In this document: piece after piece, positions 7,151 to 43,732 of the stretch
Layout of the letters: every line of letters begins with the position of its first letter
Position numbering within the stretch: the stretch's first letter is position 1
Assembly: GCA_028717345.1 (NCBI GenBank)
Contig: JAQUNZ010000002.1
Span: forward strand, 7,521 to 71,520
Direction: 5' to 3'
Length of the DNA: 64,000 nucleotides
From: Candidatus Methanoperedens sp.
GTDB lineage: Archaea; Halobacteriota; Methanosarcinia; Methanosarcinales; Methanoperedenaceae
Position numbers and translations under genes: made by a program
Notes under the pieces: generated by a model
What the model was told of the DNA's origin: nothing
Databases searched by the model: none
Seen by the model: only the letters and a program-made list of their open reading frames with translations

Positions 7151-7161
7151 GGCATATCGAT

Positions 7162-7761
7162 ATGGTTAATCTTGAATATTTTTCAAATTTTAATGTTGAC
7201 AATAAACCAGAATTCATAAAAAGATTTATCTTCAATCCATTGTTCGAGGCATATAATCACTTAAAGTTGATAGAAGTAATTAAAAACAGTGATGAAGTTA
7301 AAATCAATAGGGAGATGTATAAATACATCCGAGATTTTTCATCCATTTCAAAAGAAGTCCAAAAACATATAATTTCTGTAAATTATAAACCAAAAGAGGT
7401 GGTGGGCGATGAAGAACACGAGCCGGATTTACAATTTGCTCTACCTAACTGTTTTAACATTTTTTTTGAAGCAAAAAGAATGTACAGACCTGATTCGTAT
7501 TCCAAATATTGTGGAGAAAGTGGCTTGGGTCGGTTTTTATCAGGTTATTATTCTTCCAAAGACATCGATGGTGGTATGATAGCCTATGTTCAAATAGGCA
7601 ATATATTAGAAGCCCAAGAGAAAATAATTGGAATGGTTCAGAAAATAGATTTCATAAGTCTAAACAGAAATATCGGGATTAATTCTACGTTCTTATCTGT
7701 TCATAAAAGATTATCAAACAATAATATAAAAATCTATCATATATTCTTTGATTTAACTTAA
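7162..7761 (+). CDS. Small PD-(D/E)xK-motif protein; candidate restriction endonuclease or effector partner
   Basis: 199 aa, starting 11 nt after the methyltransferase. The motif is ...EHEPDLQFALPNCFNIFFEAKRM..., i.e. P88-D89 ... E103-A-K105. I recognise no other family. Confidence 0.5.
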   Translation: MVNLEYFSNFNVDNKPEFIKRFIFNPLFEAYNHLKLIEVIKNSDEVKINREMYKYIRDFSSISKEVQKHIISVNYKPKEVVGDEEHEPDLQFALPNCFNIFFEAKRMYRPDSYSKYCGESGLGRFLSGYYSSKDIDGGMIAYVQIGNILEAQEKIIGMVQKIDFISLNRNIGINSTFLSVHKRLSNNNIKIYHIFFDLT

Positions 7762-25478: not shown

Positions 25479-26918
25479 ATGATCGTTACAAAGCATATTT
25501 CCCTTGATAAGGACTGCGTTGAAAAGATGAGACCTTATGTCGAACGGCATCAGGGCAATTTCAGCGCGGCGATGAGGGAAATAATAGATAAGGCAGGAAA
25601 ATCCGGGCTGCCATTTAACTCCTCTGCAATAGATAATTCTCTTTTTAAATGGATGCTCACTGAGGTATGCACCTTCATACCGGATAACGTGCTGAACGAA
25701 ATGATTGATCCTGTGCTGATAAATTCAGTGAGAAAGCTCGAAGGGTTCGTTAATTTCAGATTCCAGGACCTTGGATGGAATACAGATATTTCATTAAAAT
25801 GTGATAATGATTCATTCCCTTCCGATATTTTGATGGAAATAAAGGGTGATAACCAGAAAGTAAAGTTCATCGCCTGCATCATGTCCCAGTATCTTGTCAA
25901 GAACTCGCTTGAACGTTCCCCGCTTGAGATTAATTCTGTCGTAAATTTTAATGAGGGAATAAAGATCGAACTATCCCGATCTAATAAGAATGAAGCGCTC
26001 AACAGCCTTAACACATTTTTCGGAGGGATGGATGAAATATTTAAGATCATAAAAGGCTATCCAACCTTCTGGAAAGCTATAATTTCCAGACATCATTTAA
26101 GCAATTACAACATGGTCACTGTCCACAGGAATTACTTTGAAGAACTTCTGGCGAACAACATACCGCTCGGGGAAATAACAATAGAGAACCTGGCAAAAAA
26201 ACCCATCCAGGAAATTCCATTGGTGCAGATGCTTCCTCTAATAAAAGAGGTATATGAGACCGCAAGGGTCGTAGACCGGGTGGAGATCGATAAAGACAAT
26301 GTTATTTTGTTCCATAATTATAGAAACAAGGATGCAATAGAAAAACTAAAAAAGATCCTTGTTACGTTGTTGGAGATTAACGGTCATTTATATGATGCAA
26401 AATCCACAGCCAATATGATCGTGCTGACGCACAGGCCAGATGTGGGATTGAAGATCAATGAGGTCGTGGATAATCTGAAAACAAGCAACAATAGAGTGGA
26501 TCAGGAATTATTAATGTTCATGGCTTTCCTGAAAGGGCTAAAGAACATCCCCGACATCCCCCTGTCCCTTACCTCCCTGGGTAGAAGAATGGGCAAAACC
26601 CTGATGCAGGAATACGAAAAGGAGAATGTCATCAGGAAATGGGACCTTGCAAGCTTCAAAAAGGCATTTGAGATGATCAATTCCAAACTCCGCACTGAAA
26701 GCGAATGGAAACTTGACGGGAATATTCTGCTCTATACGGTGAAGAGATGCAATATCGCCAATGAAGGAAATAAACTTGATACATGCGTCTGCCATACTTC
26801 AAGGGAAACCTTCAAAGGCGCGTTGAATCATGCGTTCGGAAATACAGCAAAATTAGAGATCAAGAAATTAATATCACATGGTGACGAATTTTGCCAGGTC
26901 GTAATAAAGCTTCCATGA
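25479..26918 (+). CDS. RHH-like / V4R-like tri-Cys protein, paralog P1 (479 aa)
   Basis: N-terminus: MIVTKHISLDKDCVEKMRPYVERHQGNFSAAMREIIDKAGK. Centre: NYNMVTVHRNYFE. C-terminus: ...RCNIANEGNKLDTCVCHTSRETFKGA..HGDEFCQVVIKLP. Confidence 0.8.
   Translation: MIVTKHISLDKDCVEKMRPYVERHQGNFSAAMREIIDKAGKSGLPFNSSAIDNSLFKWMLTEVCTFIPDNVLNEMIDPVLINSVRKLEGFVNFRFQDLGWNTDISLKCDNDSFPSDILMEIKGDNQKVKFIACIMSQYLVKNSLERSPLEINSVVNFNEGIKIELSRSNKNEALNSLNTFFGGMDEIFKIIKGYPTFWKAIISRHHLSNYNMVTVHRNYFEELLANNIPLGEITIENLAKKPIQEIPLVQMLPLIKEVYETARVVDRVEIDKDNVILFHNYRNKDAIEKLKKILVTLLEINGHLYDAKSTANMIVLTHRPDVGLKINEVVDNLKTSNNRVDQELLMFMAFLKGLKNIPDIPLSLTSLGRRMGKTLMQEYEKENVIRKWDLASFKKAFEMINSKLRTESEWKLDGNILLYTVKRCNIANEGNKLDTCVCHTSRETFKGALNHAFGNTAKLEIKKLISHGDEFCQVVIKLP
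26112..26131 (+). repeat. Invariant 20-mer ATGGTCACTGTCCACAGGAA (copy 1 of 4)
   Basis: The identical string occurs in all four paralogs at the MVTVHRN codons. Confidence 0.9.
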
Positions 26919-26939: not shown

Positions 26940-27245
26940 CTACCTGGGTTGTATCCCTCTCCCGAGTTCTTCGTACATCATTTCTTTTTCTTTCTTCAAT
27001 TCTGCTTCCCTGCGTGCCAGAACTCTCATAGCTTCGGTAGGTTTGATACCCACGGTAATCCTGTGTTTCCGTTCCTTCATGTATTCAAGGAAACTCCATG
27101 TCATATATACTACGAATGCAGCCGGTATGAAGAACAGCCACCCTGCGGTAAAGGTGATGAAAGTTTCTGCGGGATAAAAATACGCCGCCATCATAAAACC
27201 CATTGCCGCAGTTATTGCCACAATATATTTTAACCGGGTGTCCAT
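26940..27245 (-). CDS. Small two-TM protein, family member 'b' (101 aa)
   Basis: ...GWLFFIPAAFVVYMTWSFLEYMKERKHRITVGIKPTEAMRVLARREAELKKEKEMMYEEL. It is collinear with member 'd'. Confidence 0.7.
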   Translation of the reverse strand: MDTRLKYIVAITAAMGFMMAAYFYPAETFITFTAGWLFFIPAAFVVYMTWSFLEYMKERKHRITVGIKPTEAMRVLARREAELKKEKEMMYEELGRGIQPR

Positions 27246-27276
27246 ATTATATCACCTCTTCAATCTAATCTATCTG

Positions 27277-27287
27277 ATGACAATGTC
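27277..27287 (-). promoter_or_regulatory. Conserved leader box GACATTGTCAT upstream of small-TM gene 'b'
   Basis: It is part of a ~55-nt upstream block that aligns with the blocks upstream of 'c' and 'd'. On the + strand it reads TGACAATGTCA, itself a palindrome. Confidence 0.35.
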
Positions 27288-27569
27288 AAAAGTGTATTTG
27301 GTAAGGCAAAGGTCAGGAACCAGCATTAAACGCCACAGAGGCTGAATTATGGCGTATGAATCCACTAATACAGATATATAAAAATGTATCAGGATTTGGG
27401 TACCATAATAACATTCTATTTGGTTTTTAAAAACCATGGATCAGGTAATCATGGAATAATAAGTAGAAACCGTACATTTTTTTTTTATTTTGTCTCACAC
27501 ATTCCACAATACAGTTCATCGTGACGAGAAGAGGCAACTCAGTCACAGGATGTTCTCAAACACTTCTAT

Positions 27570-27580
27570 AACATTGTCAT
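27570..27580 (+). promoter_or_regulatory. Conserved leader box AACATTGTCAT upstream of small-TM gene 'c'
   Basis: It sits in the same position relative to the GGTGATA..ATG Shine-Dalgarno/start as in 'b' and 'd'. Confidence 0.35.
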
Positions 27581-27608
27581 TTGATATGTTAGTTCAAGGT
27601 GATATTAT

Positions 27609-27791
27609 ATGGAAAACCGGACAATAGAAACTCAGATAAAATATCTGGGAGTTGTAGCTGCTGCCCTTGTTTTTCTGGCAGCTGCGTATAGCCTGCCGAC
27701 TGAAACCTTCTTTGGCATCTTTGCTGCAGGATTATTCCTGATCCCGGCAGCATTCTTTGTATACGTCGTCCAGAAGGTTGCGAAAACATAA
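27609..27791 (+). CDS. Small two-TM protein, family member 'c' (60 aa, lacks the charged C-terminal tail)
   Basis: ...AAGLFLIPAAFFVYVVQKVAKT. It has the two TM segments only. Confidence 0.6.
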   Translation: MENRTIETQIKYLGVVAAALVFLAAAYSLPTETFFGIFAAGLFLIPAAFFVYVVQKVAKT

Positions 27792-27858: not shown

Positions 27859-29301
27859 ATGAGTATTACAAGACACATCTCTCTTGACGATGACCATATT
27901 GAAAAAATGAAACAATATATCGATAAACATAATGGTAACTTCGGCGCTGCGCTAAGAGAGATGATAAACCTGGCAGGAAAGTACAGCCATCGTTCGAATT
28001 CATCTGCCATAGATATATCGTTACTAAACTGGATGCTCTCGGAGATAGATGGCATACTTATTCCTGATGACATACTGGACGAAACGATAAACTCCATGCT
28101 GATCAATTCTATGGGAGAACTGGAGGAATACCTGAAACACAGGTTCTCTGAACTCGAATGGGGTACGGATCTTGTTCTGAAATATGACCGGGATTCGTTC
28201 CCTTCTGATGTATTGGTCGAAATAAAAGGTCCATCTCAAAGAATAAGGTTCGTGGCTTGTATGGTCTGCCAGTACCTGGTGAAAAACTCACTTATCCAGT
28301 CGCCACTTGAGATAAAGAAGGTAACAGGATCTGCTGAGTGCATAAAGGTCGAGCTTTTAAGATCAAATAAAAAGGATGCGAAAAAGAGCCTGTGTACTTT
28401 TTTCGGAGAGCGGGATGAAGTAATGAAAACCATAAAGAGCCGCCCTGCTTTCTGGAAGGCTTTGATCGACAGGCATTTGCTCAGCAACTACAATATGGTC
28501 ACTGTCCACAGGAACTATTTTGAAGATATACTTTCAGACAGGGTACCCCTGGGGGAGATAATGATAGAGAATCTGGCTAAAAAGCCGGTACGGGATATAC
28601 CATTACCAGAGATGCTCTCCCTGATAAAAGAGGTTTACGAAACATCAAGGATCGCAGACAGGGTGGAAATAGACAAAGATACCATAGCATTGTTCCACAA
28701 TTTCAGGACAAAAGAGGCAATTGAAAAGCTGAAAAATAGCCTTATCCTGCTTCTGGAGTCCAGCGGTCATTTATACGATGCGGCAACTATCGCCAATATG
28801 ATAGTGCTCAGGCACAGACCTGATGTGGGTACGAAAATAAACGAGATCGTGGCAAATCTTAAGACGAGTAAAAGCACGGTTGACCAGGAGTTGCTGGTGT
28901 TCATGGCATATCTAAAGGGAATAAAGGATATCCCGGATATTCCCATGACCCTGACCTCACTTGGCAGGAGGACAGGCATTTACCTTATGCAGGAATACGA
29001 ACGTGAGAACAGCATCAAGAACTGGGACCTGGATACCTTCAGTAAAGCTCTTGCGATGATCGATTCCAGGCTTCACAGGGAGAGCGAATGGAAACTCGAC
29101 GGAAATAATCTTCTGTATACTGTCAGGAAGTGCAATCTTGCTTCGGATGGAAATTCGTTTGATACTTATGTGTGCCGTACTGCAAGGGAGACGTTCAAAG
29201 GCGCATTGTATTATACTCTTGGGAACAGGGCAGAATTGAACATTAATAAATTGATAACCCGTGGTGATAATTTTTGTGAGGTGATGATACGAATACCATA
29301 G
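27859..29301 (+). CDS. RHH-like / V4R-like tri-Cys protein, paralog P2 (480 aa)
   Basis: The start was trimmed to MSITRHISLDDDHIEKMKQYIDKHNGNFGAALREMINLAGK so that it aligns with P1 and P4. The C-terminus is ...KCNLASDGNSFDTYVCRTARETFKGA..RGDNFCEVMIRIP. Confidence 0.8.
   Translation: MSITRHISLDDDHIEKMKQYIDKHNGNFGAALREMINLAGKYSHRSNSSAIDISLLNWMLSEIDGILIPDDILDETINSMLINSMGELEEYLKHRFSELEWGTDLVLKYDRDSFPSDVLVEIKGPSQRIRFVACMVCQYLVKNSLIQSPLEIKKVTGSAECIKVELLRSNKKDAKKSLCTFFGERDEVMKTIKSRPAFWKALIDRHLLSNYNMVTVHRNYFEDILSDRVPLGEIMIENLAKKPVRDIPLPEMLSLIKEVYETSRIADRVEIDKDTIALFHNFRTKEAIEKLKNSLILLLESSGHLYDAATIANMIVLRHRPDVGTKINEIVANLKTSKSTVDQELLVFMAYLKGIKDIPDIPMTLTSLGRRTGIYLMQEYERENSIKNWDLDTFSKALAMIDSRLHRESEWKLDGNNLLYTVRKCNLASDGNSFDTYVCRTARETFKGALYYTLGNRAELNINKLITRGDNFCEVMIRIP
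28495..28514 (+). repeat. Invariant 20-mer ATGGTCACTGTCCACAGGAA (copy 2 of 4)
   Basis: Read directly from the sequence. Confidence 0.9.
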
Positions 29302-29306
29302 AAGAA

Positions 29307-30203
29307 ATGTATTTGAGAGCAGGGAGCATAAAAATAATTGCATTGCTTTTCCTTGCCGGAATGTTCTTGACCGGGGATGCATTAGCGCAGGACAGGGTGG
29401 TGGATGCATCATGTTTTCACTGTCACACAAGACAGGTAACCCAGTTTGAAAAAAGTGTACACTTTAATAATAATATTTCGTGTACTGACTGTCATGGCGG
29501 AGACATAAGGATCAACGGCAGCGTAGTATCTATAGACGTCATGTCTAAGGATTTTGCAGGCTCGCCTTCGCGGGTTAACCTTACGACTTTCTGTTCCAAA
29601 TGCCATGAGCAGGTGACAAGGAAGTACGAAAAAAGCATACACTGGAAAAAAGTTCAAGAGGGAAGACCTCAAGCTGCATCGTGCATCGATTGCCACGGGA
29701 CCCATAATATCCTGTCTTCTAAAAACCAGGCTTCTCCAACACATCTTGAAAATATACCTTTGATGTGCGGAGGCTGCCACGAAAACCAGACAAAAATGCA
29801 AGCCTGGTACTATGGAATAAAGACCGACAGGTTTGACACCTACAAGAAATCGTATCATTACAAGTCTTACCTGGGTGGCGGAAAAGTACTTGCAACATGC
29901 TCTGACTGCCATGAGAATCATGATACGAAACCCGAAGCTGATCCTGAGTCTGCAATAAATCCGGCGAACCTGCCCACAACCTGTGGGAAAACAAATTGTC
30001 ATCCAGGCGCTAATAATGTCTATGTTTATGGCGGCAAGATCCATGAAGAGCAGTCAGTTAACCTGTTCTTCATCGATGTAAAAACGCTTGTAACATATTT
30101 CTATATAATAATGATATTGTTTGAACTGGCATTTACATTCGGGCTTATTTTCCTGGGCATTACTTCAGGACTCGATATAAAAGGGAGGAAAAATCATGAC
30201 TGA
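29307..30203 (+). CDS. Multiheme cytochrome c (6 CxxCH plus one possible CX4CH), with signal peptide and C-terminal TM anchor
   Basis: Heme motifs: CFHCH, CTDCH, CSKCH, CIDCH, CGGCH, CSDCH, plus CGKTNCH. The N-terminal signal is IIALLFLAGMFLTGDALA and the C-terminal helix is YFYIIMILFELAFTFGLIFLGI. It starts 5 nt after the P2 stop. Confidence 0.85.
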   Translation: MYLRAGSIKIIALLFLAGMFLTGDALAQDRVVDASCFHCHTRQVTQFEKSVHFNNNISCTDCHGGDIRINGSVVSIDVMSKDFAGSPSRVNLTTFCSKCHEQVTRKYEKSIHWKKVQEGRPQAASCIDCHGTHNILSSKNQASPTHLENIPLMCGGCHENQTKMQAWYYGIKTDRFDTYKKSYHYKSYLGGGKVLATCSDCHENHDTKPEADPESAINPANLPTTCGKTNCHPGANNVYVYGGKIHEEQSVNLFFIDVKTLVTYFYIIMILFELAFTFGLIFLGITSGLDIKGRKNHD

Positions 30204-31008
30204 ATTAAAATTCAGACGGTTCACGCTCAACCAGCGGATACAGCATATCATTTTCTTTACGACCTTTATATTGCTCGCATACACGGGTTTCCCATTGAAG
30301 TTCCCTGATGAGTTGTGGGCGAAATGGATGATAGCTTCGGTAGGAGGTTTTGATAACAGAACACTAATACATCACTTTTCGGGTCTCTTGATGATCGGTG
30401 TATCAGTATATCATGTTGTCTTCCATCTTATTGAGAAGCCTCGTTTTGATGTTTTGTTCAATTTACAGGATATTTCAGACTTCAAGCAGCAGATGCGTTA
30501 TTACCTGAGGCTGACAGATCAGCATCCCAAATTCGGAAGATATACATGGAAGCAGAAGTTCGAATATTTCGGAGCCGGGTTTGGAGCTGTAGTAATGGGT
30601 TTCACCGGATTATTGATGTGGAAGCCATTCGAAGCTATGCAATATTTTCCGATAGGTGTGGTGCAGATAGCTAACCTGTTCCACACATGGGAGGCGGTCC
30701 TTGCTTCTCTTGCAGTGTTCATAGGGCATTTCTATGATGAACACTTCGGGAAATTCCCGAATATATCCTGGATAACGGGAAACATATCAGCGCAAGAGAT
30801 GCGCCATGAGCATACCTTAGAATATGAAGCGGCGATGAAGGATCAGGAACCTGAAGAAGTAACAGAAACAAGCCATGGGAATAACACTGGACCTGTTACA
30901 ATGTTAGCAAAGTTAGTGTTCACAGTGATCTTCCTAGCTATTACCGTCTGGATGCTGTGGATCTCGTATAATGTACTGGTTGATGCAGTAACCACATATA
31001 TATTCTGA
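30196..31008 (+). CDS. Membrane b-type cytochrome (FdnI/HydC/PhsC-like, PF01292-type)
   Basis: RFTLNQRIQHIIFFTTFILLAYTG ... HHFSGLLMIGVSVYHVVFH ... with conserved His in the TM helices. It overlaps the cytochrome c gene by 8 nt. Confidence 0.75.
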   Translation: MTELKFRRFTLNQRIQHIIFFTTFILLAYTGFPLKFPDELWAKWMIASVGGFDNRTLIHHFSGLLMIGVSVYHVVFHLIEKPRFDVLFNLQDISDFKQQMRYYLRLTDQHPKFGRYTWKQKFEYFGAGFGAVVMGFTGLLMWKPFEAMQYFPIGVVQIANLFHTWEAVLASLAVFIGHFYDEHFGKFPNISWITGNISAQEMRHEHTLEYEAAMKDQEPEEVTETSHGNNTGPVTMLAKLVFTVIFLAITVWMLWISYNVLVDAVTTYIF

Positions 31009-31015
31009 TCCAGAC

Positions 31016-31024
31016 TTTTTTTTT
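31016..31024 (+). terminator. Oligo-T tract (T9, then ATTTT) after the cytochrome c / cytochrome b pair
   Basis: It starts 8 nt after the stop codon and looks like an archaeal poly-T terminator. Confidence 0.4.
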
Positions 31025-31223
31025 ATTTTCAGAAATATCCATCGATGGCAATCTCAAGTTCATTGTTCCGGTTTTCTGCCATCACAATAATATTATGTCA
31101 TAAATGCTGGCATACGGAAACAATTGATATCAAATACATTTTTAGTATTGTCATTGCATAAACAAACATAAGAGTGGTCATGAATATTACATTGAATAAA
31201 GTTGGTAAAAGCGGGTGGTTAAA

Positions 31224-32666
31224 TTGCCGGTATTAAGGCACATATCACTGGATGATGAGTATGTAGATAAAATGAAACCCTATCTGGAAAAAAATAGCGG
31301 TAATCTATGCGATTCTTTCAAGGAGATATTAGGACAGGCTGGAAAGTACAATTTGGGCATGAATTCATCTGCTATTGATACAGTTTTACTTAATTGGTTG
31401 CTTAAAGAAGTTGAGGATACCCTCATCCCTGATAAGGTACTTGATAAAATACTTGATCCAGGGCTTATGACCTCGATGACAAAATTTGAAAAGTTCGTAA
31501 GGCAGAGGATAGAAGAGCTTGAGTGGGATATTGGCATGGTCTTCAAATATGATAATGTAACTTTTCCATCAGAGATATTGATCGAAATGAGGGGCGCTCC
31601 TCAAAAAACAAAATTCCTGGGAAGTATATTGTCACAGTATCTTGTTAAGAACTCACTGGAATATGCGCCACTTGAGATAAAATTCGTTGTCAATATTAAT
31701 TCCTGTATGAAAATCGGATTATTCAGGTCAGATAAAAAGGATTCCCAGAAGAGTCTCAATACCTTTTTTGGAAATTTAAATGAAATAATGAACGTTATCA
31801 GGAGCCATCCTGATTTCTGGAAAGACATTATCCACAGGCACGTGGCAAGCAATTACAATATGGTCACTGTCCACAGGAATTATCTTGAAGATATTTTTAC
31901 AGATAAGATACCTCACGGGGAAATAATGATAGAGACAATGGCAAAAAAACCGGTGCAGGATATCCCATTAAAAGAGCTGCTTCCTCTCATAAAAGAGGTA
32001 TATGAGGCTGCAAGGGTTGTGGACAGAGTGAACATCGAGAACGAAACGATAATCGTTTCCCATTATTTTAGAAATAAGAATGCTGTTGAAAGATTAAAAA
32101 ATGGCCTTGTCATGCTCCTTGAATCCAATGGTCATCTATTTGATGCAAAAACAACTACCAATATGATCGTGCTCAGCCACAGACCAGATGTCGGTATGAA
32201 AATGAATGAAATTGTTGACAATCTAAGATCAAGCAATAGCATGCTGGATCAGGAATTAATGATGTTCATGGCTTTTCTTGAAGGGCTTCGTGAAATCCCT
32301 GACATCCCCCTTTCCCTCACAACTCTTGGAAGAAGGATCGGCAGGTCGCTGTTAAAGGAGTACGAAAAAGAGAATAATATTAAGGACTGGAACCTGGAAG
32401 CCTTCAAGAAGGCGATGGAAACCATCGACTCAAAGCTCCACAGGGTGAGCGAATGGAAACTGGAAAACAGAAATCTAATATATACTATCAGGGAATGCAG
32501 CATTTCAGAAACCGGGAATACCTTTGACCGTTATATCTGCCATACTATCAGGGAGGCTTTCAAAGGAGTATTGAGCCAGGCATTCGGGAATAAGGCAGAA
32601 CTGAAGATAAACAATCTGCTGTCGCGTGGAGATAGTTTTTGTGAAGTGTCTATAAGGATACCGTGA
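31224..32666 (+). CDS. RHH-like / V4R-like tri-Cys protein, paralog P3 (480 aa if TTG 31224 is the start; the alternative is GTG 31215)
   Basis: (M)PVLRHISLDDEYVDKMKPYLEKNSGNLCDSFKEILGQAGK ... ECSISETGNTFDRYICHTIREAFKGV..RGDSFCEVSIRIP. A TTG start gives the same length and N-terminal register as P2 and P4. Confidence 0.75.
   Translation: MPVLRHISLDDEYVDKMKPYLEKNSGNLCDSFKEILGQAGKYNLGMNSSAIDTVLLNWLLKEVEDTLIPDKVLDKILDPGLMTSMTKFEKFVRQRIEELEWDIGMVFKYDNVTFPSEILIEMRGAPQKTKFLGSILSQYLVKNSLEYAPLEIKFVVNINSCMKIGLFRSDKKDSQKSLNTFFGNLNEIMNVIRSHPDFWKDIIHRHVASNYNMVTVHRNYLEDIFTDKIPHGEIMIETMAKKPVQDIPLKELLPLIKEVYEAARVVDRVNIENETIIVSHYFRNKNAVERLKNGLVMLLESNGHLFDAKTTTNMIVLSHRPDVGMKMNEIVDNLRSSNSMLDQELMMFMAFLEGLREIPDIPLSLTTLGRRIGRSLLKEYEKENNIKDWNLEAFKKAMETIDSKLHRVSEWKLENRNLIYTIRECSISETGNTFDRYICHTIREAFKGVLSQAFGNKAELKINNLLSRGDSFCEVSIRIP
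31859..31878 (+). repeat. Invariant 20-mer ATGGTCACTGTCCACAGGAA (copy 3 of 4)
   Basis: Read directly from the sequence. Confidence 0.9.
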
Positions 32667-32770
32667 GCCTGCCAATAATTTTCATGCCAAGTATTGTCAT
32701 AAAAACGATTTTTTTGTCATTTCATGCCATTTCCTGACTTTGATGCTAATTTCTTGACAAATATTGTTTT

Positions 32771-32781
32771 GACATTGGCAT
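32771..32781 (+). promoter_or_regulatory. Conserved leader box GACATTGGCAT upstream of small-TM gene 'd'
   Basis: It aligns with the boxes upstream of 'b' and 'c'. The region 32680-32775 also holds 2x TTCATGCCA, 2x TTGTCAT and 2x TTGACA. Confidence 0.35.
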
Positions 32782-32807: not shown

Positions 32808-33098
32808 ATGAAAAATTGGGTTAAGTATGTCGCAACAATTGTAGTCGGCGCCACTGTGATGGGAGCAGCCTATCTCCTGCCCATGGGAACCTTTCAGGCT
32901 TTCGTGATAGGGTGGTTGTTCCTCATTCCAGCGACCTTTGCCGTATACATGCTGTTCTCACTGAAAGAATACATGCAGGACAGGAAGAACAGGATCGTAG
33001 TATCGGTAAAACCTACGGAAGCCATGAAAGCGCTGGCACGCAGGGAAGCGGCGCTGATGAAAGAAAAAGAGCTCCTGTATGAAGAGCTCCAGAAATAA
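32808..33098 (+). CDS. Small two-TM protein, family member 'd' (96 aa)
   Basis: ...GWLFLIPATFAVYMLFSLKEYMQDRKNRIVVSVKPTEAMKALARREAALMKEKELLYEELQK. It ends 20 nt upstream of P4, and a GGAGG lies between them. Confidence 0.7.
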   Translation: MKNWVKYVATIVVGATVMGAAYLLPMGTFQAFVIGWLFLIPATFAVYMLFSLKEYMQDRKNRIVVSVKPTEAMKALARREAALMKEKELLYEELQK

Positions 33099-33118: not shown

Positions 33119-34561
33119 ATGATCGTTACAAGACACATCTCTCTTGACAACGACTGCATCGATAAGATGCAGCCGTATGTCGAAAAAAACAATGGCAATT
33201 TCAGCGCTGCTGTAAGAGAGATAATTGACAGGGCAGGAAAATACAGTTCCCTCCAGAATTCCTCTTCTATTGACAGTTCCTTATTCAAATGGATGCTGGC
33301 AGAAATAGACGGCAGACTTATCCCGAACAATGTTCTGGATGAAATAATAGATCCTGCGCAGATAGATTCATTAAGGGGGCTTGAAAAGCAACTGCTTCAA
33401 AGGTTCAGTGAACTTGAATGGAACATTGACCTTGCAATAAAATCTGACAGTGATTCATCTCCATATGACGTACTGATAGAAATAAAAGGTGCTCCTCACA
33501 AAATAAAATTCGTTGCATGCATTCTCAGCCAGTATCTGGTGATAAACTCCCCGGAGCAGGCATCACTTGGGATACGGTCGATCAGCAATTTCAGCGATTG
33601 TCTGAAAATCGAGCTTGTAAGAATGAATAAAAAGGACGCACGGGACAGCCTGAATAATTTCTTTGGAGTGATGGATGAAATAATACAGGCAATAAGGAAC
33701 CGTCCTTCTTTCTGGAAGACCGTTATAGATGGACATTTGTTGAGCAATTACAGCATGGTCACTGTCCACAGGAATTATTTTGAAGACCTGCTTGCAGGAA
33801 AAATACCAATGGGTGAGATAACCATCGAAACGCTGGCAAAAAAACCCATCCAGGAAATACCCTTAAAAGAGATGCTTCCACTGATAAAAGAAGTTTATGA
33901 AACATCAAGGGTCGTGGACAGGGTTGAGATCGACAGGGAGACAGTAATTCTGTTCCATAATTACAGGAACATAGAAGTGATAGACAAATTAAAAAAGAGC
34001 CTTATTGCGCTTCTTGAAGCCAACGGTCATTTATATGACGCAAAGTCCACAGCCAACATGATCGTCCTGACTCACAGACCTGACGTTGGCATAAAAATAA
34101 ATGAGATCGTCAGCAACCTGAAGATCAGCAACAGCAGAGTTGACCAGGAATTGTTGATGTTCATGGCTTTTCTGAAAGGCTTAAAGAACATACCTGACAT
34201 TCCTATGTCTCTAACATTCCTGGGCAGAAGGATGGGTAAGTCGCTGATGCAGGAATATGAAAGGGAGAATAGTATCACGAAATGGAGCCTGGAGACATTC
34301 CAGAGCGCTTTTGGCGCCATAGATTCCAGGCTGCACAGGGAAAGTGAGTGGAAAACTGACAAGAACAATCTCGTGTACCTTGTCAGGAAATGCAATATTG
34401 TGGCTGATGGGAACACAGTCGATAAATATGTGTGCCAGACCATACGGGAAACTTTCAAAGGGGCTATCAGTCACGCTTTCGGCGCGCAGGCGCAGCTGGA
34501 GGTCAGGAATTTGTTAACTCACGGTGACAATTGTTGTGAGGTGTTAATACGAATACCATGA
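33119..34561 (+). CDS. RHH-like / V4R-like tri-Cys protein, paralog P4 (480 aa)
   Basis: MIVTRHISLDNDCIDKMQPYVEKNNGNFSAAVREIIDRAGK ... KCNIVADGNTVDKYVCQTIRETFKGA..HGDNCCEVLIRIP. Confidence 0.8.
   Translation: MIVTRHISLDNDCIDKMQPYVEKNNGNFSAAVREIIDRAGKYSSLQNSSSIDSSLFKWMLAEIDGRLIPNNVLDEIIDPAQIDSLRGLEKQLLQRFSELEWNIDLAIKSDSDSSPYDVLIEIKGAPHKIKFVACILSQYLVINSPEQASLGIRSISNFSDCLKIELVRMNKKDARDSLNNFFGVMDEIIQAIRNRPSFWKTVIDGHLLSNYSMVTVHRNYFEDLLAGKIPMGEITIETLAKKPIQEIPLKEMLPLIKEVYETSRVVDRVEIDRETVILFHNYRNIEVIDKLKKSLIALLEANGHLYDAKSTANMIVLTHRPDVGIKINEIVSNLKISNSRVDQELLMFMAFLKGLKNIPDIPMSLTFLGRRMGKSLMQEYERENSITKWSLETFQSAFGAIDSRLHRESEWKTDKNNLVYLVRKCNIVADGNTVDKYVCQTIRETFKGAISHAFGAQAQLEVRNLLTHGDNCCEVLIRIP
33755..33774 (+). 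repeat. Invariant 20-mer ATGGTCACTGTCCACAGGAA (copy 4 of 4)
   Basis: Read directly from the sequence. Confidence 0.9.
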
Positions 34562-34633: not shown

Positions 34634-35458
34634 ATGGAAACGTTCGTTGAATACATGACATATGTAAAAGGGATCGGATATTTGCTTGTAGTGGCATTTC
34701 TGTTTGCATTCATTGCTTTCTGGATGCTTGTACATACGAAAAATAAGGATTTCGTAAAAAGCGTTCCGGTGATCGTGGTAGTATGGCTGGTGTTCGGAGG
34801 TGCCTCAGCAGTAATTTCAAACGGTAATTCGAATGGAAATAATGTAACGGCTGATACCCATGCAGAACCTGTTGTCACAGCGCCGGCATTTCCTGAGTAT
34901 TACAGCAATGGAAGCCCTGCCACCATAACCGCACACCGCGCGGAAAAATGGATGGGTGTGAACAGCTCTGAATATAGTTCAATAAGTTACGGTTCAGCGA
35001 CGGATTTCCATGCTGTTATGAGTAAAAAAGTAGCATGTACGGACTGTCACCATAACAGCGGTGATGAGATACATGCATGCAAGGATTGTCATGGCACTCC
35101 ATTTAATCCAGATGATATGGCAAAACCCGGGCTCAAGGCTGCTGTTCATGAAAGGTGCCAGGGCTGTCATACTGAAATATTCGGAGGTCCTGATGGCTGC
35201 AAGCTATGCCATACCCAGGGGTCTCCTGGTGCAGTGGCAGTGCCGGCTCCAGAAAGACCCCATACACTGACATGGGATCAGTGCCTGCGCTGCCACCCGG
35301 ATGGGATACCAGGCGGACAGAGTATAAAGATAGTCTATCACGACTTCTGCATCAAGTGCCATACAAAAGGCATTGCCGGAGCTGATAAGCTGCCATCCGA
35401 CCATGCCGGTCGTACGGGAGATACATGCAAGGGCTGCCATAAGCCAGCAGGAGGATAA
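34634..35458 (+). CDS. Heptaheme c3-type (class III-like) cytochrome c with N-terminal membrane anchor
   Basis: Heme motifs: CTDCH, CKDCH, CQGCH, CKLCH, CLRCH, CIKCH, CKGCH. There are two N-terminal hydrophobic segments. Confidence 0.85.
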   Translation: METFVEYMTYVKGIGYLLVVAFLFAFIAFWMLVHTKNKDFVKSVPVIVVVWLVFGGASAVISNGNSNGNNVTADTHAEPVVTAPAFPEYYSNGSPATITAHRAEKWMGVNSSEYSSISYGSATDFHAVMSKKVACTDCHHNSGDEIHACKDCHGTPFNPDDMAKPGLKAAVHERCQGCHTEIFGGPDGCKLCHTQGSPGAVAVPAPERPHTLTWDQCLRCHPDGIPGGQSIKIVYHDFCIKCHTKGIAGADKLPSDHAGRTGDTCKGCHKPAGG

Positions 35459-35461
35459 AAC

Positions 35462-36364
35462 ATGAAAATGAGCAGACGAGATTTTGTAAAGATCGGTGGA
35501 TCTGTTGTGGCATTGAGCCTGATGGGTAATACTGCGGCAGCAGGAACCCACAGTTTCACAGGCTACCCTGACCGCTACGGCATGCTTTCCGACCTTACAA
35601 GGTGCATTGGATGCCGCAGATGTGAGGCTGCGTGCAACAAGGCGAATAATCTTGGCACCCCAAAGACCTCTTTTGAGGATACATCTGTGTTCGAGGAAAA
35701 AAGAAGACCCTATGTTGCGGACGTTGGATCTTACACTGCGGTCAACCGCTTCGAGGTAGATGGAAAAACCGTTTACCGCAAAGTTCAGTGCATGCACTGC
35801 GAGGAGCCAGCCTGCGTTTCAGCCTGCCTTGTCGGGGCGCTGCAGAAGAGCCCGGAAGGACCTGTAACATGGAACGAAAAGGTGTGCATCGGATGCAGAT
35901 ACTGCATTACAGCCTGCCCGTTCTATGTACCGGCGTTCGAGTATTCAAGCGCATTTGACCCAAAGATACAGAAATGCTTCATGTGCCACCAGAGAATCAC
36001 AAATGGCACAGTTCCAGCATGCGCTGAAGCCTGTCCTGTTGAAGCGATTACATTCGGCAAGAGGGACAAACTTCTGAAGCTTGCCTGGTCAAGGATATGG
36101 GGCGAACCTGACAAGTATATAGACCATGTTTATGGCGAGCGTGAAGCTGGAGGCACAGGATGGCTGTACGTATCAGGAGTCCCGTTCTCAAAACTTGATT
36201 TCCAGATGGATATAGGAACAACAGCATATCCTGAATTGACAAAAGACTTTCTCTCCATAGTCAATCTCACCCTGGTCTCCTGGCCAGCGGTATTTGGAGG
36301 GATATATCTCATGAACCATAAGGATAAAAAAACTCATACTGAGGAAAAGGAGGTAAAGAAATGA
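35462..36364 (+). CDS. NrfC/HybA/DmsB-like 4x[4Fe-4S] subunit with Tat signal and C-terminal TM helix
   Basis: The Tat motif is MKMSRRDFVKIGG. The clusters are CIGCRRCEAAC, CMHCEEPACVSAC, CIGCRYCITACP and CFMCHQR...CAEACP. Confidence 0.85.
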   Translation: MKMSRRDFVKIGGSVVALSLMGNTAAAGTHSFTGYPDRYGMLSDLTRCIGCRRCEAACNKANNLGTPKTSFEDTSVFEEKRRPYVADVGSYTAVNRFEVDGKTVYRKVQCMHCEEPACVSACLVGALQKSPEGPVTWNEKVCIGCRYCITACPFYVPAFEYSSAFDPKIQKCFMCHQRITNGTVPACAEACPVEAITFGKRDKLLKLAWSRIWGEPDKYIDHVYGEREAGGTGWLYVSGVPFSKLDFQMDIGTTAYPELTKDFLSIVNLTLVSWPAVFGGIYLMNHKDKKTHTEEKEVKK

Positions 36365-37605
36365 CTGATATAATAGAAACTGAAGATCTGAGGAAAACAG
36401 AGACAGTTGAATACTGGATAAATGAACTGTTCTTTAACAGGCTCAGCATAAAAGATTATGTGAAATCGCTGATAAATCCTTTCAATATTGTTGCAGGGAT
36501 CATTGTCCTTGTCGGGCTGGCATTTATTTTCATGCGATTTGCCTTTGGTCTTGAAGCGATAACCGATTCCTCGAATACGCAGGCATGGGGACTCCTTCTT
36601 GGCGTGGGGCTGTTCACAGGCGTTCCATTCTCAGCTTCCGGGTTCGTGATGGGAACAGCTGTGTACATCTTCGGATTGAAAAAATACCAGCCTGTGGTAA
36701 CGAATGCGATCCTCCTGGGATTCCTAGGCTACCTGTTCGCAGTTGTATTCCTGATGACAGATCTGGGCAGACCCTGGCGCATCTATTATCCGATGATCCT
36801 GTCGTTCGGTCCTGCTTCAGTCATGTTCCTTGTAGCATGGCATGTGGCTCTGTATCTCTCGGTGCAGGCGCTGGAATTCTCGTCATCTGCATTTGAGTGG
36901 CTGGGAATAAGGTCGCTTCGAAAACTTGTTGTCGGCGCGACGCTGGGACTAACGATCGCAGGCATCATGCTCTCCACGCTTCATCAGTCAGCCCTGGGTG
37001 CTATGTTCCTTCTTGCTCCTGGAAAAGTGCACCCTCTCTGGTGGAGTTCGTACATGCCCTGGCTTTTCTTTGTGTCAGCCCTTGCTGCCGGGCTTGTGTA
37101 TGTGATACTTGTTAGCAAACTGACCCAGATGTTCATGAGGAACAGGGCTGATGAGCGATACCTTGCAAGCCTTGATGAGATCACTCTTGGCATCGGGAAA
37201 GCCTGCGCCCTGATACTGTTCACGTATGTGGGCTTGAGGCTTACAAGTATCACTTATGAAAATGCCTGGGGTTATTTACAGGGAGCATACGGTATGTGGT
37301 TCCTTGTTGAGTTCCTGCTGTTCGCTCTGGCTCCGCTCATGTTCTTCTACGGGGTGCAGAAAAAGAACGTCGGGATTGTGCAGGTCTCAGCTCTGGTGAC
37401 CATGATCGCAATAATCCTGAACAGGCTCAACACTGTATACATAACCTTCAACTGGCAGTTCCCCCACAGAGAACTCTTCTACTGGAAAGAGGTCATTGTG
37501 GTGATAGCTGTTCTTACAATTGAGGTTCTTGTATATCGCTGGATAGTGAACAGGATGCCAGTGCTGAGACAGCATCCTGATTTCATAGGTGAAGAGCACG
37601 GATGA
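36361..37605 (+). CDS. NrfD/PsrC-family polytopic quinone-interacting membrane subunit
   Basis: 414 aa with about 10 hydrophobic helices. It overlaps the FeS subunit by 4 nt, the classic NrfC-NrfD arrangement. Confidence 0.75.
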   Translation: MTDIIETEDLRKTETVEYWINELFFNRLSIKDYVKSLINPFNIVAGIIVLVGLAFIFMRFAFGLEAITDSSNTQAWGLLLGVGLFTGVPFSASGFVMGTAVYIFGLKKYQPVVTNAILLGFLGYLFAVVFLMTDLGRPWRIYYPMILSFGPASVMFLVAWHVALYLSVQALEFSSSAFEWLGIRSLRKLVVGATLGLTIAGIMLSTLHQSALGAMFLLAPGKVHPLWWSSYMPWLFFVSALAAGLVYVILVSKLTQMFMRNRADERYLASLDEITLGIGKACALILFTYVGLRLTSITYENAWGYLQGAYGMWFLVEFLLFALAPLMFFYGVQKKNVGIVQVSALVTMIAIILNRLNTVYITFNWQFPHRELFYWKEVIVVIAVLTIEVLVYRWIVNRMPVLRQHPDFIGEEHG

Positions 37606-37626
37606 AGTGGATTGGATAGGGTTTGG

Positions 37627-37660
37627 TCAGGGCAATGGTGTATTGCCCTGATCTTTTTTT
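37627..37660. terminator. Perfect 10-bp hairpin (TCAGGGCAAT-ggtgt-ATTGCCCTGA) followed by TC + T7, between the convergent nrfD-like and mptD genes
   Basis: Read directly from the sequence. The T-tract overlaps the mptD stop codon. Confidence 0.55.
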
Positions 37661-41992: not shown

Positions 41993-43732
41993 ATGAGCAA
42001 CAAAGAATTATTTATCACGACGTATCTGGACAGGATCGCTGAAAAATTCAATATCAGTACGGATAAGGCATTTGAAATATTCTCAATGGGAGCTATTCTG
42101 GATAAGACATTTGATGAAATTTTTGCAGATGTATTAATTAAAGGCTCTGCTGATGGTGGAATAGATGGAATTTCTTTTGATGAACAGGATGGATTCTATG
42201 TTATGGAAGTATTCCAGTGTAAGAATTCAAAAGGACTTAAACAAAACCAGTTAGAGAAATTAAAACATGATTTTGAAGAAGTTTTTTTAAAAGGAAGGAG
42301 GGACAAACCCAATACGGAAGGGTTGATGCCCAAACTGGACGAATATATTTCAATTACAAAGAAAGGATATCGTATAGAACATCATCTAAATTTTATTTTT
42401 AATGGTGATATATTAGATGTTAAAAATGCTGCTAATAATGACTTGTTCAAATTATACAATGATCCAGTAAATAGATTTTTAATTTTTGATTCAAATGAAC
42501 TTGATAAACGAATTGAAACTTTAATTAAAAGTGAAAGGAAAAGAAAAGATGTCAAATTCACCTTTAATGCAGAAAAATCAAATATATCACCAAAAGAACC
42601 ACAAGCCCTTATATCATTTTCGATATTGAATGTTAAAGCAGTCAATTTTAGAATGAAGGCCATTGAATTATGCAAACTGGTTGATATGGAAATCAAAACA
42701 AATGGCACCGAAGACAAGCTTTTTTCAGAAAACATTAGAGGTTTTTTAGGATATAATAAGACCAATCGCAAAATCAAAGATACTCTAAATAATCCAGATG
42801 AATCAATTTATTTCCCTTTTTTAAATAATGGTATAACAATTTTGTGCGATGAAATGCAAATCCCTTCAAATCCTCAGGCGAGTCAATACATCATACCAGT
42901 TTCAAACCCTGTTATTGTCAATGGTCTCCAAACTACAAAAGTAATATATGATGTTTATACGACAGAAAAAGCAAAATTAGATGGGGTTGACATTACCGTT
43001 CGCCTATATGAAGCAAAAAATCCTGACCTTATTAATAAAATCACTGAAGCGACAAATACTCAGACTTCGATAAATTTCAAGGATAAAATTAGTAATAAAG
43101 ACTTCCAAAAATATGTAAAAATGCTCTTTGAAAACAAAGGTGTTGCATATATATCAAAAAGAGGGGAAATTTTCACCAATCAATTGAGCAAAGAAATGCA
43201 TGAGTCAGTAACCAGTGAAAAAGTAATTAAGTTCTGGTATGCAACATATTACGAAAACCCTGAAATAGCCAAAAACTCAATATCCAAAGTACTGGAAGAA
43301 GTATTTGATGCGACAAACCAGGAAAATCCTCTGACAAAACTTTTTGATGGGGATAGAAATTCATCTGTCTATCTGCAATTATTTAACAGTTATTTAATCA
43401 TGAAATTTGTTACAGATAAGAAAACAAGTCGAATACAAATTGATGATTTTTTAGAGCACAGTGATGAGATATTAAGTTATGGAATATATAAATATATTGT
43501 GGTAAATCAATTAGATTTTTCACAAGAAAATATCGAACAGGGTTATGATTATGCTGTTGCTATTATTAAGAAAAATGTTGATGAAGAAAAAAGAAAGAGA
43601 GAGGAAAAATTGGAAACATATTCCCATAGTAGTTATTTCAAGAGTGCACAATGCCGAATAGATTACAATACAGATGCAAATATCTCTGAAACATATGATC
43701 TTATTGATAAATTACTTGTTAAAACAAACTGA
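41993..43732 (+). CDS. AIPR-family abortive-infection-type protein
   Basis: 579 aa in an AT-rich islet. The N-terminus KAFEIFSMGAILD...IKGSADGGIDGISFDE...VFQCKNSK is typical of AIPR (PF10592-type) proteins. Confidence 0.65.
   Translation: MSNKELFITTYLDRIAEKFNISTDKAFEIFSMGAILDKTFDEIFADVLIKGSADGGIDGISFDEQDGFYVMEVFQCKNSKGLKQNQLEKLKHDFEEVFLKGRRDKPNTEGLMPKLDEYISITKKGYRIEHHLNFIFNGDILDVKNAANNDLFKLYNDPVNRFLIFDSNELDKRIETLIKSERKRKDVKFTFNAEKSNISPKEPQALISFSILNVKAVNFRMKAIELCKLVDMEIKTNGTEDKLFSENIRGFLGYNKTNRKIKDTLNNPDESIYFPFLNNGITILCDEMQIPSNPQASQYIIPVSNPVIVNGLQTTKVIYDVYTTEKAKLDGVDITVRLYEAKNPDLINKITEATNTQTSINFKDKISNKDFQKYVKMLFENKGVAYISKRGEIFTNQLSKEMHESVTSEKVIKFWYATYYENPEIAKNSISKVLEEVFDATNQENPLTKLFDGDRNSSVYLQLFNSYLIMKFVTDKKTSRIQIDDFLEHSDEILSYGIYKYIVVNQLDFSQENIEQGYDYAVAIIKKNVDEEKRKREEKLETYSHSSYFKSAQCRIDYNTDANISETYDLIDKLLVKTN

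Follow-up and report, generated by a model that had tools for sequence, protein, structure and literature searches.

Regulator-like P proteins encoded upstream of a known menaquinol:cytochrome c oxidoreductase in Candidatus Methanoperedens

The inner-membrane quinol oxidase CbcL, which serves low-potential acceptors, is a single polypeptide that combines an FdnI/HydC-like b domain with a nine-haem c domain. Bacterial oxidases of the CbcL type have been likened to the clusters of cytochrome b and multihaem cytochrome c (MHC) found in anaerobic methanotrophic (ANME) archaea (PMC9012536). In Methanoperedenaceae, 'b-type cytochrome + 6-haem MHC' is one of the menaquinone:cytochrome c oxidoreductase cluster types (PMC7327174, PMC7082337). 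Methanoperedens couples methane oxidation to the reduction of nitrate, Fe(III) or Mn(IV) or to electrodes, and its quinol:cytochrome c oxidoreductases come in several alternative kinds; the searched literature named no regulator of them. Here, a stretch of 64,000 nt from Candidatus Methanoperedens sp. (assembly GCA_028717345.1, contig JAQUNZ010000002.1, forward strand, 7,521-71,520) was analysed around a four-gene unit, S2-P2-MHC-CytB. This whole stretch is called the window, and coordinates are window positions, with position 1 as the first letter.

By its sequence and by the published definition, the MHC-CytB pair is the already described menaquinol:cytochrome c oxidoreductase and not a new one. 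Because the cytochrome module is already known, the value of the locus lies in its regulatory layer. The reading favoured here, with moderate confidence, is that P2 is a redox- or ligand-sensing regulator dedicated to this oxidoreductase and transcribed with it from the S2 promoter to a T9 tract. The unit spanned 27.6-31.0 kb of the window and comprised the following features:

27246-27608: divergent S1/S2 intergenic region, likely promoter of S2-P2-MHC-CytB.
27609-27791, + strand: S2, short-form two-helix membrane protein, 60 aa, without a cytoplasmic tail.
27859-29301, + strand: P2, 480 aa, cytoplasmic, family PF27313 (AF_0136_C).
29307-30203, + strand: MHC, multihaem cytochrome c, 298 aa, six CxxCH motifs and CGKTNCH, signal peptide, C-terminal transmembrane (TM) helix.
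30196-31008, + strand: CytB, FdnI/HydC-type dihaem cytochrome b, 270 aa, extra C-terminal helix.
31016-31024, + strand: T9 tract, probable archaeal intrinsic terminator of the unit.

The P2 start codon (ATG, 27859; MSITRHISLDD...) agreed with the paralogs and with the NCBI protein P0001 (480 aa, from a Candidatus Methanoperedens metagenome-assembled genome), which matched P2 at 100% identity and coverage. The longest P2 open reading frame, beginning with TTG at 27757, would overlap S2. The P2 stop codon (TAG, 29299-29301) was followed by AAGAA (29302-29306) and the MHC ATG at 29307, and the MHC stop codon (30201-30203) overlapped the start of CytB (ATG, 30196) by 8 nt. P2 contained no hydrophobic segment. 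An earlier reading made from the letters alone (the sequence-only reading) had reported the 5-nt gap, the 8-nt overlap, a T9 tract at 31016, a cytoplasmic P2, a cytochrome with a signal peptide, a C-terminal TM helix, six CxxCH sites and a possible CX4CH site, and a polytopic FdnI/HydC-like cytochrome b; the bases, coordinates, motifs and hydrophobic segments agreed with each of these.

The haem motifs of MHC were CFHCH, CTDCH, CSKCH, CIDCH, CGGCH, CSDCH and CGKTNCH, and its hydrophobic segments were residues 3-28 and 253-289. Among 21 orthologues, all seven haem motifs were 100% conserved. Six additional His (H52, H112, H133, H184, H205, and H246) and three Met (M79, M164, and M269) were also invariant, so the distal ligands are sufficient for seven haems. 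MHC matched the Pfam families Cytochrom_NNT and Cytochrome_C7, and it is probably a membrane-anchored, outward-facing cytochrome carrying seven haems.

CytB, a polytopic protein, matched PF01292 (prokaryotic cytochrome b561/FdnI-HydC family; 1.4e-18, 67.7 bits, cutoff 30.1) and aligned to Escherichia coli FdnI (PDB 1KQF_C, E=3.5e-7) with a homologous fold. A CytB His stood opposite each of four FdnI His (His18/57/155/169), which we take to be the haem-b ligands. These four CytB His were located on helices 1, 2, and 4, and H17, H59/H60, H163, and H178 were invariant in 13 orthologues. Unlike FdnI, CytB has an extra fifth helix and is accompanied by a multihaem cytochrome c instead of FdnGH. Assignment of CytB as a formate dehydrogenase gamma subunit (FdnI equivalog) was rejected: it scored below the NCBIfam cutoff for TIGR01583 (1.3e-18, 67.8 bits, cutoff 115.85), and its neighbours were multihaem cytochrome and P genes, without FdnGH or a molybdopterin subunit. 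CytB is best described as a putative menaquinol-oxidising subunit.

As in the published definition of the cluster type, a b-type cytochrome adjoins an MHC of about six haems in a Methanoperedenaceae genome. The clusters of Leu et al., 2020 (PMC7327174, PMC7082337) come from the same organism group and share the two genes and the proposed role. Those papers count six haems, whereas the window-type MHC has a seventh, CX4CH motif, and they make no mention of upstream P genes, S genes or any regulator. CbcL of Geobacter sulfurreducens is similar in that its dihaem b domain, of the FdnI/HydC type, is coupled with a multihaem c domain facing outward. It differs in that the window has two genes, c before b with the 8-nt overlap, and an MHC with its own C-terminal anchor and seven haem motifs. 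A fused form was found only in two metagenome contigs (L108:4980-6503 and L109:5122-6645), where MHC and CytB were joined in frame as a 507-aa protein (six CxxCH, CEKSGCH, and the b domain); upstream of it lay S and a P shortened to 378 aa. This natural fusion supports the two proteins working as a unit. The proposal of a split CbcL-like quinol:cytochrome c module therefore holds as an analogy, since the same cluster type had already been proposed and a natural fusion exists. As a statement of homology it goes too far: with split genes and seven rather than nine haem motifs, CbcL is a functional analogue and not a demonstrated homologue.

Fifty-six genome loci, all from Methanoperedenaceae and all found through P, were mapped against the window proteins. 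The recurrent layout was [S]-P-MHC-CytB-P-S-P-c3-FeS-NrfD, with P directly upstream of the cytochrome modules and usually behind S. In the window, MHC-CytB was followed directly by P3-S3-P4 and then by the second module type. The genes flanking the unit were:

25479-26918, + strand: P1, stand-alone-type paralog.
26940-27245, - strand: S1, long-form small membrane protein, 101 aa, conserved cytoplasmic tail.
31215-32666, + strand: P3, paralog of the 'after cytochrome b' type.
32808-33098, + strand: S3, long-form small membrane protein, 96 aa.
33119-34561, + strand: P4, paralog type dedicated to the NrfD-type module.
34634-37605, + strand: second quinol:cytochrome c module (c3-FeS-NrfD), consisting of the next three genes.
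34634-35458, + strand: c3-like cytochrome with seven CxxCH motifs and an HmcD-like N-terminal helix.
35462-36364, + strand: HmcB-like FeS protein, TAT-exported.
36361-37605, + strand: HmcC/NrfD-like membrane subunit.

All 23 MHC-CytB modules in the P-anchored genome loci were preceded by P (20) or P-S (3). The gaps between P and MHC ranged from -28 to +110 nt and included several 4-nt overlaps. The c3-FeS-NrfD modules were likewise preceded by P in 34 of 34 cases, the window counted. In a neighbour-joining tree the P paralogs split into clades that matched genomic context, which indicates that the duplications are old and that each module has its own P. As loci anchored on P are biased by the P search, the test was repeated on metagenome loci anchored on cytochrome b, and the majority of the informative contigs again had P upstream. 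Together, these counts, the context-specific clades and most of the cytochrome b-anchored loci support the earlier suggestion that the paralogs are dedicated to these complexes.

One orthologous locus (L003, 73% identical) had the order P1-S1-S2-P2-S3-P4, without MHC-CytB-P3. This locus could be taken to mean that an MHC-CytB-P3 cassette was inserted into a pre-existing P array and that the adjacency has no meaning. Such an account is already disfavoured and appears highly improbable: P stood directly before MHC-CytB in over 20 species, whose proteins are as little as 57% identical, and did so with distinct paralog clades; P was also upstream in the cytochrome b-anchored loci; and the unrelated c3-FeS-NrfD module had the same arrangement throughout.

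In the contigs L071, L073, L078, L081, and L090, the P1-S1-S2-P2 block was deleted, leaving at most a C-terminal P remnant of ~60 aa, and MHC-CytB was intact. This lineage shares the MutL-CbiD-methylase-DUF356 left flank of the window. The survival of MHC-CytB where P was deleted indicates that P is dispensable, as a regulator would be. In two of these contigs (L073 and L090) a radical-SAM gene followed cytochrome b. A further contig encoded a 313-aa P without the V4R-like domain directly upstream of MHC (L103:4144-5085). Outside the family, P homologues of marine ANME-2, Methanosarcina and Methanofastidiosia were found in contexts without cytochromes, which makes the link to cytochromes a Methanoperedenaceae innovation.

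In P2, a ribbon-helix-helix (RHH)-like N-terminus (residues ~4-41) is followed by two domains with the order alpha-beta-beta-alpha-beta-beta-alpha (~85-182 and ~249-335), and the protein ends in a V4R/H-NOX-like domain (~360-480). Among 1.84 billion representatives, searched exhaustively with a profile, only 124 clusters were found. PF27313 was annotated on all P homologues in precomputed Pfam data; since it also matched short forms without the C-terminal domain, it covers the N-terminal or middle region. Members have been named 'predicted hydrocarbon binding protein' by JGI. The architectures among the clusters were the full form of 480 aa, a form of ~350 aa without the last ~110 residues, the ~350-aa form joined to the receiver domain of a response regulator, and the C-terminal domain by itself or fused to ArsR-type helix-turn-helix (HTH) domains.

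At the N-terminus, the family consensus was M-x-x-R-K-N-I-S-L-...-G-N-L-S-A-A-I-R. RHH_1 matched four of ten P N-termini in register and below threshold (13-16 bits, cutoff 20.5). No HTH was found in P by Pfam profile scans. An AlphaFold model built from a 44-sequence alignment had a pLDDT of 87.6 (an earlier run with 10 sequences reached a pLDDT of 55 and was unusable) and placed helices at residues 11-23 and 28-41, after a conserved RK-x-IS-L strand and a GN-x-S turn.

For the C-terminus, the top Foldseek matches of the P model in the PDB were Bet3/TRAPPC3 (E 1e-4, prob 1.00, TMt 0.52) and then H-NOX; Bet3/TRAPP, H-NOX and V4R belong to the same or a related fold class. In profile comparisons the C-termini of the family matched V4R (3.7e-4) and MetOD1 (5.6e-4), and the relative P0223 scored above the MetOD1 cutoff. 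P2 itself had no direct Pfam V4R hit, and a sequence search of the PDB with the P profile gave nothing meaningful. Three Cys (C425, C439, and C473) were invariant in a 10-sequence alignment of the window paralogs and close homologues. The predicted structure and profile matches support a V4R/H-NOX-like small-molecule-binding fold for the C-terminus. The middle domains resembled LAGLIDADG endonucleases in Foldseek too weakly (TM ~0.2) for the match to be used.

Taken together, these features suggest that P is a one-component regulator whose input domain can be exchanged. Two described regulators are the nearest comparisons. MsvR, a methanogen-specific archaeal regulator, joins an HTH to a V4R domain; through its three conserved Cys, DNA binding depends on redox state, and it acts on its own promoter (PMC3729527). 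P resembles it as a one-component protein with a putative DNA-binding domain, a V4R-type domain, and three conserved Cys. The DNA-binding domain is HTH in MsvR and RHH-like in P, MsvR lacks the two middle domains, the Cys spacing differs (C206/C232/C240 in MsvR, C425/C439/C473 in P), and MsvR controls oxidative-stress genes and not respiratory modules. Membership of P in the MsvR family was rejected on the absence of HTH, the architecture, and the Cys spacing. NikR has an N-terminal RHH followed by a sensor domain, a layout that P may share, and the RHH of P. horikoshii NikR aligned in register with the P N-terminus at a value that was not significant (E=0.68). P is three times the size of NikR, and the two sensor domains are not related. 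The sequence-only reading had left the role of the paralogs between regulator, assembly factor and haem sensor; the domain evidence favours a sensor-regulator over an assembly factor.

An unbiased k-mer comparison was made between 61 intergenic regions upstream of S or P genes and 228 others from the same loci. Variants of TTG(G/T/A)CA(T/A) were enriched 15-80-fold upstream of S/P, with p-values down to 1e-46 whose significance is overstated because orthologous intergenic regions are phylogenetically non-independent. The density of TGNCA was 21.7/kb upstream of S/P, 3.3/kb in the 228 other regions, and 2.8/kb in shuffles, and 73% of TGNCA site pairs were at multiples of ~10.3 nt, which corresponds to helical phasing. 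Within the window, sites upstream of S/P genes were:

32684-32781: TGNCA array upstream of S3, seven TTGNCA(T/A)/TGNCA sites ~10 bp apart flanking a TATA-like AAATATT, candidate operator.
27277-27289, 27574-27580 and 31096-31154: further TGNCA/TTGNCA(T/A) sites.

The array upstream of S3 was the densest TGNCA cluster of the entire 64-kb window, and in an eight-species alignment its TG/CA columns were invariant every 10 bp, flanking AAATATT. Upstream of S2, a TATA-like TATAA (27567-27571) was abutted by TTGTCAT (27574-27580) and followed by a GGTGAT Shine-Dalgarno sequence (27598-27603). The ~100 nt before S were conserved in most S-P-MHC units across species and included a core of ...AATA(T/A)TGTCA(T/A)TATATA. 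The commonest TGNCA variant, the pentamer TGTCA, was absent from the P-to-cytochrome gaps (2.7 kb in total). Across the whole window TTGTCAT was not above chance (15 against 13.3 expected), the signal being local to the S/P promoter regions. The enrichment before S/P and the lack of TGTCA in the gaps place promoters and candidate operators before the S/P genes and not before the cytochrome genes.

At the other end of the unit, oligo-T tracts terminate transcription in archaea, and the T9 tract lies 3' of CytB; the T9 string (TTTTTTTTTATTTT) occurs also at 27477. For the second module, a GC-rich hairpin (GGTCAGGGCAAT...ATTGCCCTGATC) followed by T7 was present at 37625-37660, right after the NrfD-like gene, and is likely its terminator.

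The P-to-cytochrome gaps, short and without a promoter-like motif, favour co-transcription, and judged from the gene arrangement P2 is probably transcribed together with MHC-CytB. The sequence-only reading had called the apparent co-transcription of a cytoplasmic putative DNA-binding or sensor protein with an exported respiratory complex unusual. This was overstated, since operons often encode their own regulators (arsR, nikR). Against strict co-transcription stands a conserved element within the 3' ends of the P genes that precede cytochrome genes:

29275-29292, + strand: conserved element TGTGAGGTGATGATACGA, inside the P2 3' end.
34535-34552, + strand: P4 counterpart TGTGAGGTGTTAATACGA, inside the P4 3' end.

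The last ~30 nt of P were conserved at the nucleotide level and at synonymous sites only before a cytochrome gene, as TGTGAGGTG-N-T-N-ATACGA; other P genes encoded the same residues with varied codons. The codons GAG-GTG were used in 49 of 50 cytochrome-adjacent P genes and in 18 of 44 others (p=2e-10), and ATA-CGA in 41 of 46 and 5 of 32, respectively (p=7e-11). The intergenic spacer after P4 was poorly conserved. RNA structure was rejected as the cause of the element (consensus fold -5.5 kcal/mol, no covariation, single-sequence z-score 0.29). The element may be an internal promoter, a Shine-Dalgarno-like standby site or a processing signal, and its presence lowers confidence in strict co-transcription.

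The element also supports a different transcript structure, in which the cytochrome pair would be transcribed separately, with a start signal of its own in the final ~30 nt of P2, and any action of P would be in trans. Two further points fit this structure: no Shine-Dalgarno sequence is well placed before the MHC start in the window, and the cytochrome b and MHC operon is reported to be expressed more highly than any other oxidoreductase cluster in Methanoperedens reducing Mn(IV) and Fe(III) (PMC7082337). On the other side, a TATA box at the 3' element would put transcription initiation beyond the first codon of MHC, both in the window and where P and MHC overlap by 4 nt, so that the TATA-box reading misfits the position of that codon in the window clade. 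The element as it stands in the window (GATGATAC) is a poor TATA match, no oligo-T terminator separates P2 from MHC, and the conserved promoter-like region lies upstream of S2. Separate transcription is a tentative alternative, at clearly less than even chance, and it is compatible with P acting as a regulator.

In the favoured reading, with P2 as a co-transcribed dedicated regulator, CytB would take electrons from menaquinol in the membrane and pass them to the outward-facing MHC and on to further extracellular cytochromes, as homology and the literature suggest. The RHH-like N-terminal domain of P2 would bind DNA, and its V4R/H-NOX-like C-terminal domain would sense redox state or a small ligand. 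P oligomers may bind the phased TGNCA repeats that flank or abut TATA boxes upstream of S/P, which would result in auto-regulation. Transcription would start upstream of S2, run through P2 into the cytochrome genes and end at T9. With one P paralog directly upstream of each module, each module would have its own regulator.

Several observations weigh against this reading, in addition to the 3' element and the non-independence of the orthologous regions noted above. The RHH membership of P remains under Pfam thresholds. Both the size of P and its conservation (75% mean column identity among paralogs) are unusually high for a transcription factor. The S2 upstream region has one to three TGNCA sites and no phased array. 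The very high expression reported for the cytochrome pair (PMC7082337) would not be typical if it shared a message with a regulator. Finally, three contigs (L095:4340-4864, L098, and L101:4486-5013) keep a P of 174-175 aa before MHC that lacks both the RHH and V4R domains and matches only residues ~190-325, the most conserved middle domain.

This last fragment, retained directly upstream of MHC in one lineage, would fit the idea that P is a cytoplasmic accessory protein, acting for example in assembly, in haem or cofactor handling or as a peripheral subunit, possibly docked to the membrane via S, and does not bind DNA. Very high conservation of P over its whole length, the many invariant His, Glu, and Asp of the middle domain, the constant pairing with a small membrane protein, and the sub-threshold RHH evidence fit the same idea, and an H-NOX-like fold could bind haem. 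Other features of the family speak for signalling: the C-terminal domain is swapped for a phospho-receiver or carried on ArsR-type HTH proteins, as is typical of signalling modules, and the phased repeats at S/P promoters call for a DNA-binding oligomer. MHC-CytB also persists where P is a 60-aa remnant, and the family occurs in marine ANME-2, Methanosarcina, and Methanofastidiosia without cytochromes. An accessory role is considered unlikely, and a regulatory role for P remains preferred.

The S proteins are probable partners of P. They have two hydrophobic/TM segments and no Pfam hit, and the short form precedes the P-MHC unit in most loci. The long forms (S1 and S3; 78-sequence alignment) carry a conserved cytoplasmic tail, (K/R)NRIxVSxKPxEAMKALARREAEL, written for S1 as NRIxVxIKPTEAMxxLARREAEL. 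This tail is a strand plus helix resembling the start of an RHH domain; the short-form S2 lacks it. A bolder proposal is that P and S form an undescribed archaeal regulatory system. The S tail would pair with the RHH strand of P and sequester P at the membrane, the V4R/H-NOX-like domain would read menaquinone redox state or haem, released P would oligomerise on TGNCA arrays, and each paralog would switch one oxidoreductase on or off. This scheme is speculative and, taken in full, rather improbable. If true, it would explain how Methanoperedens selects nitrate, a metal oxide or an electrode as its electron acceptor, a logic long sought.

The searched literature contained no description of the P family as a candidate regulator, of one paralog per module, of the S partner or of phased TGNCA arrays, and the searched literature on Methanoperedens with V4R/'hydrocarbon binding protein' and on AF_0136 yielded nothing relevant. 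The locus provides testable candidates, namely a regulator-like P for each module, a phased TGNCA operator, and a membrane partner S. Work in vitro, or in Methanosarcina as a genetically tractable relative, would allow P proteins and promoter fragments to be tested without a pure Methanoperedens culture.

Among P homologues outside Methanoperedens, a Methanosarcinaceae locus (L126:3189-7125, GCA_016841785.1) contained three tandem short PF27313 paralogs (343-376 aa) with no cytochromes nearby, so tandem expansion of PF27313 is not restricted to Methanoperedens. An identical 374-aa protein is recorded for Methanosarcina sp. MTP4. In a marine ANME-2 cluster archaeon a full-length P of 501 aa stood alone beside carB (L065:8001-9506), and in M. 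nitroreducens the S-P4-c3-FeS-NrfD cluster was just downstream of carB (L005). The adjacency to carB hints at an ancestral position of the P family.

Elsewhere in the window, two low-GC islands were observed. The first (4298-7761, GC 0.30) encoded a 950-aa Eco57I/MmeI-like restriction-modification methylase and a 199-aa open reading frame without a family match, and is probably a horizontally acquired defence gene. The second (41993-43732, GC 0.31) encoded a protein of the AIPR (abortive-infection phage resistance) family.

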